Positions 1 through 32,882 of a stretch of 32,882 bases of DNA are shown here, one piece after another. Numbering within the stretch: the first letter of the stretch is position 1; every line of letters starts with the position of its first letter. Source of the DNA: a virus (lineage: Duplodnaviria > Heunggongvirae > Uroviricota > Caudoviricetes); the IMG/VR virus record IMGVR_UViG_2721755663_000004; one strand, written 5' to 3'. The position numbers were made by a program, and so were the translations under genes. The notes below the pieces were generated by a model. That model did not search any database. It was not told the origin of the DNA and saw only the letters and a program-made list of their open reading frames with translations.

Positions 1-585
1 CTATTCGATAATGGGTACTGTTGGCCATTCAATATCCGGTGCAGTTGTTGTATTAACACGGTTCAGCAACACCCGATACTTTTTCCAGGCTTCCAGCAAC
101 AAGGTTTCTTCCTCCGTTGCGATTTCCAGATCTACAGCATCCTGAAGTGGCGCAATATGCTCACTGGCTACCTGCATCAGGCTGTTTTTTGTTTCTTCTG
201 CCTCCCGGATCCGGAACAGTTTTTCTGCTTCCGTATCCTTCACCCAGGCTGTGCCGTTCCACTTCTGATATTCCCCTCCCGGCGGCAACCAGGTAACATT
301 TTCCGGTAACGGACCGAGTTCAGAAATAAATAACGCGTCGCCGGAAGCCACGTCATAAACCGTTTTACCCCGATGGTCTTCAACGAGATGCCACGATGCC
401 TCATCACTGTTGAAAACAGCCACGAAGCCTGCCGGAATATCTGGTGGTGCAATATCGGTACTGTTTGCTGGCAGACCTGTATGAGGCGGAATATATGCGT
501 CACCTTCACCAATAAATTCATTAGTTCCGGCCAGCAGATTATAAATTTTTATGGTCCGTGCTTGTTCACTCATTCTGAATGCCAT
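1..585 (-). CDS. tfa: Tail fiber assembly protein (lambda Tfa-like), 194 aa
   Basis: ORF translation [44 protein letters not shown]... is near-identical to my recollection of lambda Tfa (194 aa); stop TAG at 1-3; start overlaps the stf stop. Confidence 0.9.
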
Positions 586-3548
586 TATGCAAGCCTCACA
601 ATATAGTTAAATGCGATGTTTTTGACGGTGTTTTCCGCGTTACCCGCAGCGTTAACGGTGATGGTGTGTCCATGTGAACCAATCGCAACGGAGTGCGTAT
701 GAGCACCAATACCGACAGTATGTGCATGTGCGCCTGCGCTTGCAGCAGTGCCGGACAGCGAGTGGGTATGAGCACCATCTGATGATGTCTTCCCTGCATT
801 ACGAGTCTGGCCACTACCGCTTGTTGTGCTCATAATCCCCGCGCTTGGATTTGAAATCGCGGTATAACCATTAGGGAAAATGCTCGTGTTCGTGCCACCA
901 AATGCACCGGAACTCTTGTGTTGGTGCGCGCCGGCACTATTTGCGGTCCCGCTAATACTATGGGTATGCGCCCCGGTGTTATTCGTGGATTTAGTGCCGT
1001 AATCAAACGACGATGTGGTTTTCGTCCCCAAATCAGTACTGGATGCGCTGGCGCTGTGGGTATGCGATTTTATGCCGTCCTGTTCCTGAGACAATACGGC
1101 ACGACCACTGGCGGGTTTGCCCTTAATCGTCCAGCCACGCATATCAGGGATCACGCCTGACGGATAAGCGGCTGCAAGTTTCGGGTATGCAGATTTGTCA
1201 AAAGTCTGCCCCTGCATCAGGGCATAGCCAGACGGAACGGTATCTGATGGCCACGGGATTGGTGCGCCAGGCGGATAAAACTGCTCTGATGGCGTATAGA
1301 GTGAATAAACTGTACCGTCCGTTAACCCTTCCGGCTTATTAGCAGAATATGCTGGTGACGTATGAATCGTCACGCTGGCATTACTGGTATAATCCCATTG
1401 AATATTTACACCAGTCGCATAATTTCCGATTGCAACGTAAATATCGTAAGTATCACCAGATGTATTGACCCAGGCAAAATTTGTAAACCCTGTCGATGTG
1501 CGCTGCCATAAAGCACCAGTAATCCCCTTCGGATTACCATTACCTGCACGCAAAACAAGTTCAGATATACCTGCCTGTTGAGGTGACCCCACGTTAAATC
1601 CCGCGCCACCAATCAACGTAATTGAAACAACAGAACTCGCCTGTGGCATGGTTACCGTTGCTAATTTGAACCAACCAGCACCACCGCTGAATGACATTGT
1701 TGTTGAGTTAAGCGTACCAATATCTTTCGGCGTCAGTGTTATATCCGCTGAAAGCGCCTTACCATTCACCTTACGGGCAGAAGGTACCCGACCATTCGCA
1801 TTATCATTAGCTGCTTTCACTGCTTTCGGTGTCGCGGCAAGCGTTTCAGATGCGCTGTTGGTTGCACTACTGAGCTGGACAATTCCTTTTTGTGCTGTCG
1901 TAGCGTCCTGAGCGGTATATTTCCCGTTAGCAAGGTCATAGGCTGCCTTTACCGACTTTGGCGTTGCCGCCAGCATTTCAGATGTGCTGTTGGTCGCGCT
2001 GCTGAGCTGAACTATCCCTTTCTGTGCTGTCGTTGCATCCTGTGCGGTGTATTTCCCGTTAGCCAGGTCATACGCGGCCTTAACTGCTTTTGGCGTTGCC
2101 GCCAGTGACTCGGAAGTGCTGTTAGTCGCACTGCTGAGCTGTACTATCCCCTTTTTCGTCGTGCTCGCATCCTCAAGCGCCACGGCGGATGCAATATCCT
2201 CTGCCCGTTTAGCTGCTGTCTCGGCGCGCGTTGCCGCGGATTCCGCCGTACTTTTGCTCTGAGCTGCCGCCGTCGCACTGCCAGCTGCCTCTGTCGCCTT
2301 CGTGGATGCCGTCGTGGCGCTGCTCTTCGCTGCTGACGCCTGTCTGGTCGCCTCATCTTTTGAAGCAGACGCCGATGATGCCGATGACGCCGCCGAACTG
2401 GCTGACGATGCGGCAGCCGTTTTTGAGGATTCTGCGCTGGTTTCCGACGCTTTCGCGTTCGTTTCGGATGTCTTCGCTGCGGAAGCAGAACTCGCTGCTG
2501 CGCTGGCCTGTTCAGTGGCTTCGCCAGCCTTCGTTGTGGCTGTTGAAGCGGATGATGCGGCGCTTTCTGCCGATTTTCCGGCGGCGGTGGCACTGGCTGA
2601 GGCCTGCCCGGCACTTGTTGACGCGGCGCTGGCAGATGATGCAGCCGCTGTTTTTGAGCCTGCCGCAGCTGAGGCGCTCTGTCCCGCTGCCGTCTCAGAA
2701 GACCTGGCGTTCGTCTCGGACGTTTTTGCCGCCTTCGCGGAATTTCCTGCCGCCGTTGCCGAGGAAGCTGCGCTACTGGCGCTCGAGGATGCGTTCGTTT
2801 CTGATGATTTCGCTGCCTCTTTTGAGGCCGCCGCATCCCGGGCTGAGGTGGCAGCTTCTGACGCTTTCGTAGTCGCGGTGGATGCAGAAGTGGCTGCTGA
2901 TTGTTGTGACGCTGCCGCATTCGTTTCTGACGTTTTCGCCGCACCGGCACTGGTGGCCGCCGCGCTTTTTGAGGACTCTGCAGCGGCAGCACTTTTTTCC
3001 GCTTCAGTGGCCTTTGTTGATGCCGTTCCTGCGCTGGAAGACGCTGACTGAGCCGACGAAGCGGCCTGTCCGGCTGACGTGCTGGCTGCGCGTGCTGAGC
3101 CTGCAGCATCAGTCGAATGGGTTGCCGCCTCACGGGCTGATGTGCCGGCATCGCCGGCTGACTTCTTCGCGGCTGCCGTGTTCTGTGCCACCGCGGACGC
3201 GTTACGCGCCACCTCTTCCACCATCAGTTCAAAACGGCGCAGTGCCTCAGGACGGGCATCATCCTCCGTCATGGCACCGAGAAAATCATTCAGCGTACCG
3301 GGTCGGGAATCTTCATACACGGTGATGGTCCCGGCATGTGACGGCGGGAAGCCTTCCACCAACAGAATAACGCTGTACTGACCGTACTCAACGTCCATGC
3401 TGTAACGCCCGGCTTCATCCGGATTTTCTGAGGCCAGCGTGTTCACCACCACCGTGGTACTGTTACGTTTTGCTTTCAGCTGGATTGTGCAGTTCTGTAC
3501 CGGTTTTCCTGTGCCGTCTTTCAGTACACCTGAAATCTTTACTGCCAT
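585..3548 (-). CDS. stf: Side tail fiber protein (lambda Stf-like, expanded to about 987 aa)
   Basis: N-terminus [30 protein letters not shown] and C-terminus ...[31 protein letters not shown] match lambda Stf; long Ala/Ser/Thr-rich central shaft. ATG at 3546-3548 preceded by GGGGTGA is the likely start; the ORF track begins at an upstream in-frame GTG (3554). Confidence 0.9.
1790..2185 (-). repeat. Three tandem ~132-bp (44-codon) direct repeats inside stf, encoding [44 protein letters not shown]
   Basis: DNA motif tatttcccgttagc recurs at about 1918 and 2050 (132-bp period); gagctgNactatccc recurs at about 1872, 2004 and 2136; protein shows two full and one partial repeat. Boundaries approximate. 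Confidence 0.8.
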
Positions 3549-3557
3549 ATTCACCCC

Positions 3558-3586
3558 ACAAAAAAGCCCGCCTGAACCGGCGGGCT
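3558..3586 (-). terminator. Rho-independent terminator downstream of lom (minus strand)
   Basis: 8-bp GC-rich stem AGCCCGCC / GGCGGGCT (3565-3572 / 3579-3586) with 6-nt loop; on the minus strand it is followed by a T-run (plus-strand A-run 3560-3564). Confidence 0.55.
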
Positions 3587-3612
3587 GTCATAACACTGTG
3601 TTACCTGGCTAA

Positions 3613-4212
3613 TCAGAATTTATAACCGACACCCACGATGAAACCGTCAGTGCGCCAGTCGCCACTGCCGGAGCCTTCATAAGCAATATCAATGGCCACG
3701 GATTCGGTCGGGTTAAACTGCACGCCAGCTCCCCACGCCAGAGACGTGTTGCTGTGGCGACCGTCATCACTTCCGGTCAGCACGTCGTGCGTTTTCCCCT
3801 TGTTGTCAGTTACGCGGAGATAATCCCCGGAGAAAGTCGACACACGGCTGTAAGACACACCCGCCATCGCATACGCGCTGAACCATTCATTCACGCGCAC
3901 AGACGGCCCCGCCATCACGCTGAACCAGCGGTTACGCACGGAATCTTCATGCCAGCGGATATCGCTGTAACGGGTCAGCTGGCGATTCTTGTCTCCTGCA
4001 TAGCTGAATGACGTCACCAGCCCCAGTGTGTCCGTAAACTCATAACGGTATTTCACGTTAATCCCGTTCAGATCATCGCTGCCGGGAACGTTCGTCGAGG
4101 CATGAAGATACCCCGCGCTCAGCGTGGACTGATGTTCAGATGCCCATGCAGACGCACCGGATACGGCCAGACAAATAGCTGCGGACAAAATGGCTGCATA
4201 AAGTTTACGCAT
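3613..4212 (-). CDS. lom: Outer membrane protein Lom (Ail/Lom/PagC family), 199 aa with signal peptide
   Basis: Translation MRKLYAAILSAAICLAVSGASAWASEHQSTLSAGYLHASTNVPGSDDLNGINVKYRYEF...GVGYKF matches lambda Lom; beta-barrel-like alternating pattern, C-terminal aromatic residue; GAGAGG RBS upstream. Confidence 0.9.
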   Translation of the reverse strand: MRKLYAAILSAAICLAVSGASAWASEHQSTLSAGYLHASTNVPGSDDLNGINVKYRYEFTDTLGLVTSFSYAGDKNRQLTRYSDIRWHEDSVRNRWFSVMAGPSVRVNEWFSAYAMAGVSYSRVSTFSGDYLRVTDNKGKTHDVLTGSDDGRHSNTSLAWGAGVQFNPTESVAIDIAYEGSGSGDWRTDGFIVGVGYKF

Positions 4213-4233
4213 AATTACCTCTCGCTTTTCTGC

Positions 4234-4260
4234 AATAAAAAAGGCGTCATTCCTGACGCC
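4234..4260 (-). terminator. Hairpin terminator between J and lom (possibly bidirectional)
   Basis: Stem GGCGTCA / TGACGCC (4243-4249 / 4254-4260), loop TTCC; minus strand has TTTTTTATT after the stem, plus strand CTTTATT. Confidence 0.45.
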
Positions 4261-4282
4261 CTTTATTGGGGTTATAAATATT

Positions 4283-7200
4283 TCAACGAATACTGATACC
4301 GGAAGCCGCTTTTTTGGTCACAATCACCGTACAGTCGGTGATATTCCCTGCCCCCTGATTGCCTTTCTGGAAAATCTTAAACTCCAGAGTGACGCTACCA
4401 CCACCACTAGGCATATCAATAACTGCACTGTAACTACCGGGAATGGCCCCTTTAGTTTCTCTGGATGCGATTAATACACCGTTTTTGCGAACTTCAAAAC
4501 CATAACCCGTGTATCTTGTACCTCCCGGGTTATTACCACTTCCCGGATCGCTATACGCTATTCCGTTAAAGATAATGGGCGGAATAATGATTTGACGGTC
4601 AAAGTTATGATCATCGCTGATGGTGACTGTAACCGTCCCGTTTGGTGTTTCCGTATTACCCCACGTACCAGCCTGTTTCGGGAATGATTTGGATACAGCT
4701 TTAACGAAGTCACCTCTGACCTGAGTCGCCTCCAGCATGCCCTTAATCGTACAGTTTTCATTTACCGTGACATTGTTGAGCGTCCCGGCGTTCGCATTCA
4801 CTCTGCCACTGATATCCGCATTTTTAGCGGTCAGCTTTCCGTCTGATGTCAGGGAAAATACCGGAGGACTGCCACCGCTGGTAATGGTGGGGGCTGTCAG
4901 GCGCTTCAGGAACACGTCGTTCATGAATATCTGGTTGCCCTGCGCCACAAACATCGGCGTTTCATTCCCGTTTGCCGGGTCAATAAACGCGATACGGTTA
5001 GCGGCAACCAGAAACTGGCTCAGCTTGCCTTCCTCCGTGTCCTCCATGCTGAGGCCAATACCCGCGACATAATGTTTGCCGTCTTTGGTCTGCTCAATTT
5101 TGACGCCCCACATGGCATTCCATTTATCGTTAGCGTCCTTCCACTCTTTCGAAAACTCATCCAGTCTGCTGGCGTTATCCTCCGTCAAATCAACTTTTTC
5201 CAGCAGCTCTTTACCGAGATGGGATTCGGTTATCTTGCCTTTGAAAAAATCCAGGTAACCTTCCGCATCATCGCTCGCCCGACCGACGCCCTCCACGAAT
5301 GCCGATTTGCCAACGGTGTTCACACTGCGGATATAAAAGTAATAATCATGGCCCGGTTTGATATTGATACTGGCGGCTATCCAGTACAGCGCCGTACCAA
5401 GATAGCGGGCTGTGGTTTCAACCTGCCTGATATCGGTAATCCGCTTTTCCGAGAACCAGAACTCAAACTGTACCGTCGGGTCATAAACGGCAAGATGCGG
5501 CGTGGCGGTTATCTGAAAATAGCCCGGCGTCAGCTCAATCCTCGACGGTGCTGCCGGTGCGGCAATCCGGAACGATACCGACGCCGGATCGCCCTGCTGC
5601 CCCCACGCATTTACCGCCCGGACTGTCAGCCTGTAGTTCCCCAGCGCCAGTTGCGTGAAGCGGTATGTGGTTTCCGTCGTCCGGGCCGTGCTGACCAGCC
5701 GCTCACTGCCGTCATCCGCTGTTACGGTCAGACGGAGCAGGAAGCTCACGCCCTTCACCACCTTCGGCGTGTCCCAGCGCGCCAGCACCTGATATTCCCC
5801 GCTGTCTGCGGTGACTTCGGCGGTCAGGTGCTGCACCGCTGGCGGCGTGACACCATTCACCGTGCCGCTCTGGTCGCCGTCAAAGTGCGCCCCGTTATCC
5901 ACGATGGCTTCTTTTTCCGGTACATGCTGCACGGCAGTGATGGCATACGTGCCGTCATCGTTATCACGGATACTCACACAGCGGAACAGGCGCTGACGCA
6001 ACGTCGGCAACTTCAGCCCCCACACACTGTATTCTGCAACGCCGTCAGGAACCCGGTTCACTTTCACCTTAAGTCCGTCGGTGACGGACTGAACCTCCAC
6101 GCTGACCGGATTACCACTTCCGTCAACCAGGCTTATCAGCGTGGTACCGGAGGATGGCAGCGTGATTTCACGGTCGAGCGTCAGCGTCCGGGTCTGGCTG
6201 TTCACCGCCAGCACGCGACCACCGGTGCTGATACCGGCATAGTCATCATCGCAGATTTCAATGACATCGCCCGGTACATGGCGAAGCCCTTCAGCACCCA
6301 CGCTGAAATCCACGGTCTGCGTCTCCAGCAGTTCCGTTTTAATCAGCCACAGCCCGGCGCGGTGTGCCTGCCCCCGGCTGGTACAGCCAAAGGCATCCAT
6401 CTTCGTGACATTACGACCGTAACGGGCAATGGCCTGCGTATCTTCAACAAGCTCTGTCGCCGTCTCCCAGCCGTTGTTCGGGTCAATCCAGTTCACCTCA
6501 ACGGCATTATGGCGGTCCTTCAGGGCGCTGAAGCTGTAGCGGAACGGCGCGCCATCATCCGGCATCACCACATTACTGCGGTTATAGGTCCACACCTTAT
6601 CTGATGGTCGGTCCTGCACGAACGTCAGCGTCTGCCCGTTCCATACCGGCATACAGCGCATCGCCGAGCAGAAATCACTGAGCACATCCCACGCCTTGCG
6701 CTGTGTGGTCAGGTATGCATTACAGGTGATGCGCGGCTCCGTGCCGCCAAAGCCGTCCGGTACTGACTGGTCGCAGTACTGGCCGATGACATACAGCGCC
6801 CATTTGTCCACATCCGCCGCACCAAGACGTTTCCCCATGCCGTAGCGTGGATGGGTCAGCATATCCCACAGACACCAGGCCATGTTGTTGCTGTATGCCG
6901 GTTTAAACGTTCCGTCCCAGATACCGCTGTATTGCCGCGTCTGCGGGTTATAATTCGACGGCACCTGCAGAATACGCCCGCGCAGATGATAATTACGGCT
7001 CACCTGCTGGCTGCCGAACTGCTCCGAGTCCACCTGCACGCCGACCAGTGCCGTGTTCGGGTAGCACTGTTTCACATCGATAATTTCGGTGTATGACGAC
7101 CAGAGCGTTTTGTTCTGCAGCTGGTCTGTGGTGCTGTCCGGCGTCATCCTGCGCATCCGTATATTGAACGGGCGCGGCGGCAGGTTACCCACCACCACCG

Positions 7201-7696
7201 AGGCCAGATACTGCGAGGTGGTTTTGCCCTTAATGGTGATGTCTTTTTCCGTCACCCAGCCACCATTACGCTGGATCTGAACCAGCAGGCGGACTTCCGA
7301 CGGATTCCGGTCCCCCTTTGAGGTGGTTTCCACCAGTGCCTGCACGCCGAAGGTAAAGCGCAGACGGTCGATGTTTGCAGACGTAATGGTGCGGGTGATC
7401 GGCGTGTCATATTTCACTTCCGTACCCAGCACCGTCTCGGAGCCGGAGGATTCAAACCCCTCCGGCGGTGTCTGCTCCTGCTCACCGGCACGGAACACCA
7501 CCGTGACACCGGAGATGTTGGTATTCCCCTCAGTGTCCAGCACCGGCGTACTGTTCAGCAGCACGCTTTTTAATCCATCCACCGGACCTTCAACCGGCCC
7601 TTCGCTGATGGCATCGATCACACTCAGCAGCTGCGTGGATTTCAGGTTATCCTTCGCTTCGCGCGGGGTATGCCCCTTACTGCTGCCTTTACCCAT
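4283..7696 (-). CDS. J: Tail tip / host specificity protein J (central tail fiber), 1137 aa
   Basis: N-terminus [34 protein letters not shown] and most of the length match lambda J; the C-terminal ~150-250 aa do not match the lambda J C-terminus as I recall it. Confidence 0.95.
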
Positions 7697-7756
7697 TCGT
7701 CATGCTCCATAAACGACAAAACCGCCCGGAGGCGGTTTCACATAAAACATTTTGCA

Positions 7757-8404
7757 TCAGCGACCAATCACCACAACCTGACCACCGTCCCCTTCGTCTG
7801 CCGTGCTGATCTCCTGAGAAACCACCCGCGACCCCACGCGCATTTCACCGTACAGAACGGGCAGAACATTGCCCTGGGCAACCATGTTATCCAGTGACGA
7901 GAAATACGTGTTCTGTTTGCCGTTATCTGTACTGGCTGCCGTGGGCGTCCTGGCTTTCGGTGCCAACATCTGCGCCACACCGCCCAGGATCATACTGGCC
8001 CCTGCCGCATACATGCCCGATACAGCCGTGGCCCCCAGCCAGCCCACAGGGTTCCACCATGCAACCGCAATCAGCGCCGCCCCCAGCACTGCCTGAAAAA
8101 TACCGCCACTTTTAGCACCCGCCGGACGCGGTACGATGTGGATCACGGCACCATTTTCCAGCGGCTCATTAAGACGGGCAGACAATTCAGTTTCACCTGC
8201 ATCACGCCCGGCAATGCGTACCTGGTACCAGCCGTCGCTCAGTTTCTGACGAAATGCCGGGATCTGCATGGCCAGCGCCCGGATAGCTTCAGCCCCCGTT
8301 TTCACACGAAGATCGATGCGGCGGCCAAATCGTTGCAAATCCCCGTAAAGGCAGATGCGTGCCATGCCCGATGACGCCAGAGGGAGTGTGTGCGTCGCTG
8401 CCAT
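7757..8404 (-). CDS. I: Tail assembly protein I, 215 aa
   Basis: MAATHTLPLASSGMARICLYGDLQRFGRRIDLRVKTGAEAIRALA... matches lambda gpI; overlaps the K 3' end by 103 bp as in lambda. Confidence 0.9.
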   Translation of the reverse strand: MAATHTLPLASSGMARICLYGDLQRFGRRIDLRVKTGAEAIRALAMQIPAFRQKLSDGWYQVRIAGRDAGETELSARLNEPLENGAVIHIVPRPAGAKSGGIFQAVLGAALIAVAWWNPVGWLGATAVSGMYAAGASMILGGVAQMLAPKARTPTAASTDNGKQNTYFSSLDNMVAQGNVLPVLYGEMRVGSRVVSQEISTADEGDGGQVVVIGR

Positions 8405-9045
8405 TTGTCGGTATACCTCTCTCGTTTGCTCAGTTGTTCAGGAATATGGTGCAGCAGCTCGCCATCACCACAGTAAATGGCGGCATGATTCGGCACCGAT
8501 GAACCAAAACAGCACAGCAGCACATCGCCCGGCTGCGCCGCTGACAACGGCACCTGATACAGCCCTGTGGCCTCCAGATTATCCAGATAGAGATTCTGAC
8601 CGTTACGCCACCAGTCATCCCCGCGATGAAAATCCGGCATCTCAATTCCCGCCAGATGGTAAGCGTCCCGGAACAGCGTGTAACAGTCCGTTACCCCGTG
8701 CTCAAAGCGCCGCCCGGTGAGATGCGGCACACAGCGGAATTTATGAATCGCCCCCCGGCAGATCAGCCACCACGGCAAATCACTCTGTACCTGCAGCCGC
8801 CGGTCGGCCTCACTCAGCCAGGGCAGACCACCGGGGTGGCTGTGGACCAGCGCCACAATCTCTCCCTGCATTTCTGCACTCAGCCAGTCCTCCGGCGACA
8901 TCCGGAAATACTCCTCCGGCTCACCGGAGATATTCACGCAGGGAAAATATCTTTCCTCCTCCGGCGTTCTCACCACGAAGCCGCACGACTCCGCTGGCGC
9001 ACATCGCCGGGCGTGCGCCAGAATCGCTGATTCTGTCTCTGTCAT
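8302..9045 (-). CDS. K: Tail assembly protein K (JAB/MPN metalloprotease-like plus NlpC/P60-like domains)
   Basis: MTETESAILAHARRCAPAESCGFVV... matches lambda gpK; HSHPGGLPWLSEAD is a JAMM-like motif. An alternative internal start (MSPEDWL, about 8901) would give the shorter 199-aa annotation. Confidence 0.85.
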   Translation of the reverse strand: MTETESAILAHARRCAPAESCGFVVRTPEEERYFPCVNISGEPEEYFRMSPEDWLSAEMQGEIVALVHSHPGGLPWLSEADRRLQVQSDLPWWLICRGAIHKFRCVPHLTGRRFEHGVTDCYTLFRDAYHLAGIEMPDFHRGDDWWRNGQNLYLDNLEATGLYQVPLSAAQPGDVLLCCFGSSVPNHAAIYCGDGELLHHIPEQLSKRERYTDKWQRRTHSLWRHRAWHASAFTGICNDLAAASIFV

Positions 9046-9050
9046 GGGAT

Positions 9051-9749
9051 TTACTGCGAAAGTTTGTTAATGGAAAGGAAGCTGCCAAAGTTGCCGACAT
9101 TATTGCGAAACTTACAGCCACTCAGGCATTTGCTGCATTTATCCTTCGTGATATCGGACGTCGGCTGGTCATATTCATCCGCGACCGCCGGACCGCTATA
9201 ACCGCACTCATCGCCGCGATAGGTCCAGGTGCAGGTGTTGGCCAGCATGATACGTCCCGGAAAAACAGCGCCATCCGTTTCAGTCGGCGTGGACAGTACA
9301 AAAGAGGCACTGACCGCGCTCAGTTCGCTGCACTGCTCGATGCGCCAGCGGCTGATCACCTCCTGCTCCGGATCGGCTTCGCTGTTTCCGTTGACGAAGT
9401 TCACCGCATCCAGAAAGCGGGCGTAAACCTTACGCCGGACCACCGTTCCGCCGACCAGACTCTGCATATCTTCCGCCATCCCGGTGACCATACCGTACAG
9501 GTTAGAAACCGTCAGCGTGGGGCGCGTACTGGTGCCTTTGCCATTCAGTTCAAAACCGCTCCCCTGAATGGGATACGGCTGATACTGTCGCCCCTGCCAG
9601 GTGACCGGCTCACCTTTTTCGTTCTGCTCATTACAGAAAAAATAACGTTCTCCACCGACCTCTGTCAGGTCGATTTCCCAGAGCACCACGCTGGCCGACT
9701 GCTCCGCACGGGTGCATTCATTCAGTGTTTCCTGCCGGATATCCTGCAT
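9051..9749 (-). CDS. L: Tail tip protein L, 232 aa
   Basis: MQDIRQETLNECTRAEQSASVVLWEIDLTEVGGERYFFCNEQNEKGE... matches lambda gpL; C-terminal Cys cluster CSKCLSGCKF. Confidence 0.9.
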   Translation of the reverse strand: MQDIRQETLNECTRAEQSASVVLWEIDLTEVGGERYFFCNEQNEKGEPVTWQGRQYQPYPIQGSGFELNGKGTSTRPTLTVSNLYGMVTGMAEDMQSLVGGTVVRRKVYARFLDAVNFVNGNSEADPEQEVISRWRIEQCSELSAVSASFVLSTPTETDGAVFPGRIMLANTCTWTYRGDECGYSGPAVADEYDQPTSDITKDKCSKCLSGCKFRNNVGNFGSFLSINKLSQ

Positions 9750-26993: not shown

Positions 26994-28091
26994 ATGAAAA
27001 AATTAACAGTGGCAATTTCTGCTGTAGCTGCATCAGTACTGATGGCGATGTCTGCTCAGGCAGCTGAAATTTATAATAAAGACAGTAACAAGCTGGATCT
27101 GTACGGGAAAGTTAATGCTAAGCACTACTTCTCCTCTAATGATGCAGATGATGGTGATACTACTTATGCCCGTCTTGGCTTCAAAGGTGAAACCCAAATC
27201 AACGATCAACTGACTGGTTTCGGTCAGTGGGAATATGAATTCAAAGGCAACCGCGCTGAATCTCAAGGTTCCTCCAAAGATAAAACCCGTCTTGCCTTCG
27301 CTGGCCTGAAATTCGGTGACTACGGCTCCATCGATTACGGCCGTAACTACGGTGTAGCATACGACATCGGTGCGTGGACTGACGTCCTGCCAGAATTCGG
27401 TGGTGACACTTGGACTCAAACCGACGTGTTCATGACTCAACGTGCAACTGGTGTTGCAACCTATCGTAACAACGACTTCTTTGGTCTGGTTGATGGTCTG
27501 AACTTTGCTGCTCAGTACCAAGGCAAAAACGATCGTAGCGATTTCGATAACTACACCGAAGGTAACGGTGATGGCTTCGGTTTCTCTGCTACCTATGAAT
27601 ACGAAGGATTCGGTATCGGTGCAACTTATGCGAAATCTGATCGTACCGACACTCAGGTTAATGCAGGGAAAGTTCTTCCTGAAGTATTTGCTTCCGGTAA
27701 AAATGCAGAAGTTTGGGCCGCAGGTCTGAAATATGACGCTAACAACATTTACCTGGCCACTACCTATTCTGAAACCCAGAATATGACTGTATTTGCTGAT
27801 CACTTCGTTGCTAATAAAGCTCAAAACTTCGAAGCTGTTGCACAATATCAGTTCGATTTCGGTCTGCGTCCGTCCGTTGCTTACCTGCAATCTAAAGGTA
27901 AGGATCTTGGAGTATGGGGCGATCAGGACTTAGTCAAATATGTTGATGTAGGTGCAACCTATTACTTCAACAAAAATATGTCTACTTTCGTTGATTACAA
28001 AATCAACCTGCTTGACAAAAATGACTTCACTAAAGCACTCGGTGTAAGCACTGATGACATCGTTGCTGTAGGTCTGGTTTACCAGTTCTAA
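26994..28091 (+). CDS. nmpC: OmpC/OmpF-family general porin (NmpC / phage PA-2 Lc-like), 365-aa precursor
   Basis: [23 protein letters not shown] signal peptide then [24 protein letters not shown]... ending ...VAVGLVYQF; AAAGGG RBS before ATG 26994; orientation opposite to the late genes. The track ORF has a 20-codon upstream extension. Confidence 0.9.
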
Positions 28092-30343: not shown

Positions 30344-30826
30344 TTAATTTAATAATCCTTGGAGAAATCTCACGCACCACCTCAATAGTTGCGCTTGCTC
30401 TTGAGAATCAACAAAAAGATAAGCTTCTTTATTTCCGTGGAAAAGGTTATTTCTTATCCTTATAACTATCTTTAATACTGTAGACATGGTGTTTAGATCT
30501 GTTGCTGCGTCATTTTGAAGTCCATTAACTATTCCCCGCCTATCTCTCTCTCGACCGACACAGAGGGCGTCAAGTCTTTCCTGCGCATCCCCGTTCAAAA
30601 TGTATCTCTGCTTAAAATCGTGAAAAAGTTCGTTGGGCACCTTTATCCCGGCGTCAAGTAACGTTCGCGCATAATTTAAACTGTCTTCCCCCTTAGCAAA
30701 GCCACCAAAAAAACTTTGCTCGACCCTAGGAAAAATCATGCAGAATTGAAGATAAACATCAATCAGTTCATCAGATGGAGGCTCCGATAAATTAAGTAAC
30801 CGCTGCAGTCCTTCTGCACTTATCAT
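30344..30826 (-). CDS. Hypothetical 160-aa protein with HEPN-like Rx4H(G) motif; candidate RNase/toxin-type cargo
   Basis: Intact [31 protein letters not shown]...[20 protein letters not shown]...; R-NNLF-H about 37 aa from the C-terminus resembles the HEPN/HepT RX4HXY motif; low-GC by eye; ATG overlaps the stop of the upstream small ORF (ATGA). Not a lambda or DLP12 backbone gene I recognise. Confidence 0.55.
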
Positions 30827-31071
30827 TTTTCACCTTCCTGCTTAAGATGTCGAGGAGTGGATGCCTTGGGCAGCGCGATGCTCTGCTCGCGGTAATGTCG
30901 TGGCCGCTCCAAAAAATAGTCCCGCAAATGCTCAGGCTGCTCACGCATCACCGCTTCGGCAATAACCGGTATATTAAGGCGCTCTTTGTAGGTAACTCAG
31001 GAGACAGCAAGGTCAACGTTAACCTTCTCGCGCTCTTCTTGTGTTTTAGCGGCAATATTCTGCTTCGACAT
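30823..31071 (-). pseudogene. 82-codon ORF interrupted by an in-frame TGA (30997-30999); either a nonsense-disrupted partner gene or a 41-aa protein starting at Met 30946-30948
   Basis: Same frame reads MSKQNIAAKTQEEREKVNVDLAVS[61 protein letters not shown], with its stop overlapping the start of the HEPN-like gene. Confidence 0.3.
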
Positions 31072-31082
31072 GGCGTTACGTT

Positions 31083-31404
31083 TTACTCCTTTTTGGGTGC
31101 ATACACGTTGTTTATCCGTTCAATATGAATAGTTACATCCGGGCTTTCTAAGAATAAGAAGTCAATCAAATGACCAATGAGAATGCAGGCATCATTAATA
31201 GAGGACCTTGTGACTTTAATCCCTCCATGACTGCCGTGATTCCCCAACCACTTTAACGCCATGAATGCATCTTTATTTGGTCCCAGTTTATCTGAATAAT
31301 ATGTGATTCTTTCATGCGTAGAAAGACGTATTATCTTGCCTTTAACTGTTTTCTCTCTTGGTACATCAAGACTATCAAGCATCATCTCCAGTATGGTTCT
31401 CATG

Positions 31405-31430
<26 letters not shown>
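31083..31430 (-). pseudogene. 5'-truncated gene fragment (115 codons); N-terminal 9 codons and GTG start supplied by the IS911 left end
   Basis: ORF ...HMRTILEMMLDSLDVPREKTVKGKIIRLSTHERITYYSDKLGPNKDAFMALKWLGNHGSHGGIKVTRSSINDACILIGHLIDFLFLES...; upstream reading frame runs into the IS terminal sequence TGAAGTGGTTTACTG beginning at about 31405; low-GC. Domain assignment (possibly DUF4145-like) is from memory and tentative. Confidence 0.45.

Positions 31431-32882
<1,452 letters not shown>

Follow-up and report, generated by a model that had tools for sequence, protein, structure and literature searches.

A phage 434-type receptor-binding domain in the J protein of a lambda-like prophage and its predicted specificity for OmpC

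We analyzed a stretch of 32,882 nt from a lambda-like E. coli prophage (IMG/VR record IMGVR_UViG_2721755663_000004; the whole stretch is referred to as the window) and observed that its gene J encodes a central tail fibre protein of the lambda family with the C-terminal domain of phage 434, which is part of a mosaic cassette of ~1 kb. This domain is likely to dock on OmpC and not on LamB. The J tail is already known as a classical variant that has been sequenced and is very common: the h434 host-range allele has been in use in lambda genetics for decades, the 434 genome was made public in 2022, and the PDB already contains related gpJ domains in complex with LamB and with OmpC. For annotation, the prophage can be described as a lambda-like phage with a predicted dependence on OmpC and not on LamB. 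The following parts of J are referred to throughout:

4283..7696, minus strand: gene J, tail-tip or central tail fibre protein, 1137 amino acids plus stop codon (list of open reading frames)
4781..7696, minus strand: J residues 1-972, lambda-like by identity to lambda, comprising hub, FNIII, alpha-helical shaft and central straight fibre
4286..4780, minus strand: J residues 973-1137, divergent C-terminal receptor-binding region, 434-type allele (alignment)
4289..4696, minus strand: J residues 1001-1136, Ig-like receptor-binding domain proper, PF12421 Ig_GpJ_C (Pfam)

J is a full-length tail-tip protein of the lambda family (TipJ or gpJ). The NCBIfam model NF049904 lambda_TipJ matched it with 2281.6 bits (cut-off 1950) and covered residues 1-1137, and the Pfam domains were found in canonical order from the N- to the C-terminus, namely FNIII-A_GpJ (PF24801), Phage-tail_3 (PF13550), Ig_J (PF24421), Ig_J_second (PF24489), Phage_Tail_Tip (PF09327) and Ig_GpJ_C (PF12421). 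The last of these, 'Tip attachment protein J, C-terminal receptor binding domain', was recovered with an E-value of 2.2e-25 and 89.7 bits at a cut-off of 26.2. In gene order J follows K and I and precedes lom, stf and tfa, collinear with lambda and 434.

Next, we aligned J with the reference proteins of lambda (NC_001416; NP_040600) and phage 434 (OL657226; UMO75286.1). Residues 1-972 are identical to lambda J at 949 of 972 positions (97.6%) and to 434 J at 960 of 972 (98.8%), which bears out the preliminary description of this DNA in its statement that most of J follows lambda J closely. From residue 973 to residue 1137 only 65 of 171 alignment columns (38%) are identical to lambda J, whereas 155 of 165 residues (94%) are identical to 434 J; the difference in lambda identity between the two parts of the protein is highly significant (Fisher test, P = 6e-80). 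At the DNA level, each block of 100 nt as far as J nt 2900 has 87-100% identity to lambda J; the value drops to 72% for nt 2901-3000 and is 42-51% beyond. BLASTN homology to lambda within J ends at window position 4727, and the break can be placed at about window positions 4730-4800. The peptide that had been quoted as the C-terminus is the actual end of the 1137-amino acid reading frame on the minus strand, and the span of 4283-4750 that had been given for the divergent region corresponds to the stop codon and residues 983-1137, starting near the break. It had also been stated that the last 150-250 residues are unlike the lambda C-terminus. The divergence is real, with 36-38% identity on alignment and four indels where a lambda-like C-terminus would show high identity, but its extent is smaller than the upper part of that range, as the divergent part comprises about 153-165 residues. 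The indels include an insertion of 6 residues at ~1046-1051 and a deletion of 6 residues near 1117. Lambda J has the same domain architecture and Ig-like fold of the receptor-binding domain as the window J.

In order to assign the divergent tail to an allele class we compared residues 985-1137 with characterized J proteins. Identity to 434 was 145 of 153 residues (95%), while it was 42-45% to the domain of A8 (PDB 9wca/9wcb; BLASTP, MAFFT), 42% to phage 21 and 36-38% to lambda (BLASTP, MAFFT), so that the window J is neither of the lambda type nor of the phage 21/A8 type. Over the full length, the 434 J protein has the same number of residues (1137) and 98% identity, with 22 amino acid differences of which 8 fall within residues 985-1137. 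A tblastn search with the last 165 amino acids of J against 50,697 phage records returned 74 records with at least 90% identity and 169 with less than 60%, and none between these values; matches to the J tail in a search of 5.8 billion proteins show the same identity gap, with no intermediates. Judged by these identities, the J receptor-binding alleles form discrete classes, and the window J falls into the 434-type class.

This class is widely spread. The phages 2B8, Evi, PhiR26_1 and PhiR29_1 have the last 618 nt of J at 100% identity; for many Stx1a- and Stx2c-converting phages the figure is 97.1%. The DNA of the whole gene is 99.4% identical to J of the phages 2B8 and PhiR26_1. Identical receptor-binding-domain DNA is thus present in plaque-forming phages, for one of which (PhiR26_1) K-12 MG1655 is recorded as the host. 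In a survey of 5426 complete E. coli genomes, DNA of the 434-type domain at an identity of at least 90% was found in 2114, while the lambda-type domain was found in 98, in all cases with at least 99% identity; the top-listed matches of the latter are laboratory strains (K-12, B and DE3). In natural E. coli the allele of the window J is therefore common and the lambda allele is rare, and the rarity of the textbook lambda allele (98 versus 2114 of 5426 genomes) bears on the choice of the J domain for engineered lambda particles.

The exchange with respect to lambda is not confined to J. Two further features are relevant here:

3740..4727, minus strand: mosaic cassette of ~1 kb, made up of the J receptor-binding domain, the stretch between the two genes and most of lom (BLASTN)
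3613..4212, minus strand: lom, outer-membrane protein of the Ail/PagC/OmpX family, 434-type (identity to 434 Lom)

When the window was compared with lambda by BLASTN, homology was absent between 3740 and 4727 except for a match of 59 nt at 4015-4073. The comparison with 434, on the other hand, gave a single alignment with 94.3% identity from 3127 to 9098, which covers K, I, J, lom and the N-terminus of stf, so that this part of the window is collinear with 434 and the 434-type lom is common to both. Taking the gap in lambda homology and the collinearity with 434 together, the mosaic unit is the cassette of ~1 kb composed of the J domain and lom. The Lom protein of the window is identical to 434 Lom at 193 of 199 residues (97%) and to lambda Lom at 92 of 207 (44%), and NCBIfam matches of the OmpX/Rck family were found for lom. 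On the basis of these comparisons, the J receptor-binding domain and lom appear to be exchanged together.

To evaluate the fold of the divergent region, the last 250 residues of J were used for a sequence search of the PDB, where they matched 9wca (A8 gpJ 713), 8xcj and 8iyk from end to end, with E-values of 1e-78 to 1e-88 for the gpJ chains. In addition, residues 960-1137 were modelled with AlphaFold2 from an alignment of 26 sequences. The model is all-beta with a mean pLDDT of 74.6 (means of 71-96 for the blocks of the domain), and a Foldseek search against the PDB placed four gpJ structures at the top with E-values of ~1e-14 and TM scores of 0.68-0.70: 9wcb ('Open state of A8 gpJ 713 central tail fiber with OmpC'), 8xck (lambda gpJ, closed state), 9wca (A8 gpJ, closed state) and 8xcj (the complex of lambda gpJ with LamB). 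The match after these had an E-value of 5e-4. The structural modelling proposed earlier as a check of the J tail thus gives a model that keeps the fold of the gpJ receptor-binding domain (TM ~0.7). An unrelated fold is ruled out by the Pfam, PDB sequence and Foldseek results, and we conclude from sequence and model that the J tail is a divergent member of the lambda receptor-binding-domain fold and not a different module. The best structural match is the gpJ chimera A8, in which a lambda J scaffold carries a domain that binds OmpC. As A8 and phage 21 belong to another allele class, the contact loops of A8 are not directly transferable to the window J.

What receptor would such a domain recognize? 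Lambda J binds LamB, while phage 434 uses OmpC, and lambda with the J region of 434 binds OmpC (PMC3509688; PMC11101478); for the use of OmpC by 434, Hantke 1978 is also named as a source (as cited in 10.1101/2022.09.30.509847). Natural gpJ C-termini grafted onto lambda gpJ are sufficient to retarget particles from LamB to OmpC (10.1101/2022.09.30.509847). Because the window J belongs to the 434 class and 434 uses OmpC, a different receptor is the best-supported reading, and the different receptor specificity suggested in the preliminary description is backed by homology, namely by the 95% identity to the allele of an OmpC user. We infer from this relationship that the window J has OmpC as its receptor. 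Full-text literature searches for receptor experiments on the window J allele or on the phages 2B8, Evi, PhiR26_1 and mEp460/mEp332 found none.

The divergence from lambda on its own is no proof of a receptor change, because the domain of phage 21 is only 48% identical to lambda and nevertheless uses LamB. The native receptor of phage 21 is LamB, and one mutation in J adds OmpC (PMC11336670). Since LamB is the native receptor of a domain that shares 82% identity with the OmpC-binding A8 and only 48% with lambda, allele class and receptor do not correspond one-to-one. By the same example one could argue that the J domain of the window still binds LamB despite its divergence and that the receptor is unchanged. 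We regard this as very improbable, as the closest characterized relative is the OmpC user 434, lambda switches to OmpC when it carries the 434 J region, and identity is low to both LamB binders (38% to lambda and 42% to phage 21). The location of the determinant within 434 was also considered with the sequenced hybrid lambda h434 imm21, which is 434-derived from J nt ~2133 onwards, including lom and stf genes of the 434 type. With a crossover at this position, classical genetics alone cannot assign the specificity for OmpC to the final 160 residues; the hybrid only narrows the determinant to the last third of J and the downstream genes, and it was not retained for mapping to the J domain.

OmpC specificity might also differ in detail between members of the 434 class. 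In residues 985-1137 the window J differs from 434 at positions 1004, 1008, 1009, 1019, 1049, 1108, 1110 and 1115. We surveyed the polymorphism of 48 distinct 434-type domain sequences and found that the recurrently polymorphic positions form four clusters (1004-1019, 1046-1058, 1097-1101 and 1107-1115). All eight differences between the window J and 434 lie in or adjoin recurrently polymorphic positions of the class; in the secondary structure of the model, residues 1004, 1019 and 1115 are inter-strand, and residues 1008, 1009, 1049, 1108 and 1110 are inside predicted strands, close to the strand ends. The four clusters may match four contact loops and tune the specificity for OmpC alleles. 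Through these substitutions the domain, though 434-like, might have a narrower or shifted specificity, accepting certain OmpC alleles only, or OmpF or another porin beside or instead of the OmpC of K-12. Such shifts have precedents: among engineered gpJ variants A8 accepts the OmpC of both K-12 and EDL933 and 1A2 only that of EDL933 (10.1101/2022.09.30.509847), and few mutations take phage 21 J from LamB via OmpC to OmpF (PMC11336670). Receptor choice in the gpJ fold is labile in this sense, and few substitutions can switch the porin. We consider a shifted specificity unlikely for the window J, however, given the 95% overall identity to 434 and the occurrence of the identical allele in PhiR26_1 with its recorded K-12 MG1655 host.

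Docking of the 434-type domain on OmpC can be pictured from what is known of lambda. There, four distal loops (L1-L4) of the trimeric gpJ domain enter the trimer of LamB and, after docking, the domain spreads at its base, with a twist in the central straight fibre and an opening of the tail tip (PMC11101478). By analogy, the trimeric J domain of the window would dock on the trimeric porin OmpC with its distal loops in the extracellular mouth of the porin, and OmpC binding would cause the base of the J domain to spread, the central straight fibre to twist and the tail tip to open. As J upstream of residue ~972 is lambda-like, the mechanism of triggering is presumably that of lambda, started here by OmpC docking. 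The central straight fibre has a further feature in common with lambda: residues 902-933 (window 4898-4993, minus strand) are the lambda sequence, F924 included. The peptide corresponding to these residues is the reported trigger of HepS, an abortive-infection nuclease encoded by a prophage (PMC13043305), and as it is the same as in lambda the phage is expected to trigger HepS defence.

Two other tail genes lie downstream of lom:

585..3554, minus strand: stf, side tail fibre, 989 amino acids, uninterrupted (list of open reading frames)
1..585, minus strand: tfa, tail-fibre assembly protein (identity to lambda Tfa)

The N-terminal part of Stf is 81% identical to lambda orf-401 and the C-terminal 230 amino acids are 69% identical to lambda orf-314; between them is a central region of ~370 residues with 36% Ala and 24% Ser. 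In this gene the window departs from phage 434, whose Stf has 437 amino acids compared with 989 and is unrelated beyond the N-terminus. For Tfa, identity to lambda Tfa (orf-194) amounts to 93.8% over 194 amino acids. Since the Stf of Ur-lambda binds OmpC, both fibres of the window phage may, by analogy, target OmpC. A gathering scan of the window with Rfam returned no IpeX-like RNA; the sole match was IS009 (RF02111) at 44-242 on the minus strand, within the tfa coding region, with 230 bits at a gathering score of 117.

At some distance from the tail genes the window encodes a porin:

26994-28091, plus strand: intact porin of the OmpC family, 365 amino acids (NCBIfam 'porin OmpC', 530 bits)

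The gene is located between a Q-like antiterminator (quuD) and the lysis genes, on the opposite strand. The protein is 98.9% identical to Lc of phage PA-2 and 100% identical over 347 amino acids to the IS5-disrupted NmpC of phage 434B, and this near-identity assigns the entire element to the 434/PA-2 group. PA-2 lysogens produce Lc and have less OmpC, which would fit a phage that enters through OmpC, and the porin of the window could likewise change the porin set of the lysogen and hence its sensitivity to OmpC-dependent phages. An exclusive association of the porin with the 434-type J was considered and rejected: the porin is also present in the phages PhiR29_2, 4A7 and 1W, which have other J alleles, so no exclusive linkage between porin and J can be claimed. 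A more far-reaching proposal, which we regard as rather doubtful, is that the eight substitutions tune the usable OmpC alleles or the usable porin, and that the J domain with lom, the lambda-like Stf tip with Tfa and the Lc/NmpC porin would form a coordinated package for OmpC entry, after which surface proteins of the lysogen would be replaced or altered.

Finally, we considered whether J might be a decaying remnant in a defective prophage that no longer serves as a receptor-binding protein. The far end of the prophage gives some reason for this idea, as a truncated integrase is found there beside an element of the IS3 family, together with a pseudogene for a theta subunit:

~30823-31071: DNA polymerase III theta-like pseudogene
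~31477-32464: transposase of the IS3-family element ISEc52, frameshifted
~32466-32882: tyrosine integrase, N-terminally truncated

J itself, by comparison, is an uninterrupted reading frame of 1137 amino acids with every Pfam domain intact, and its DNA is 99.4% identical to that of isolated phages, four of which have the same C-terminal 618 nt, so that decay of J is scarcely credible. Over the first 25,000 nt (window 1-25000), identity to phage PhiR26_1 is 97% over 93% of the length. The decayed end of the prophage extends from ~30823 to 32882 and is followed in E. coli D9 by ybhC, a gene of the host.
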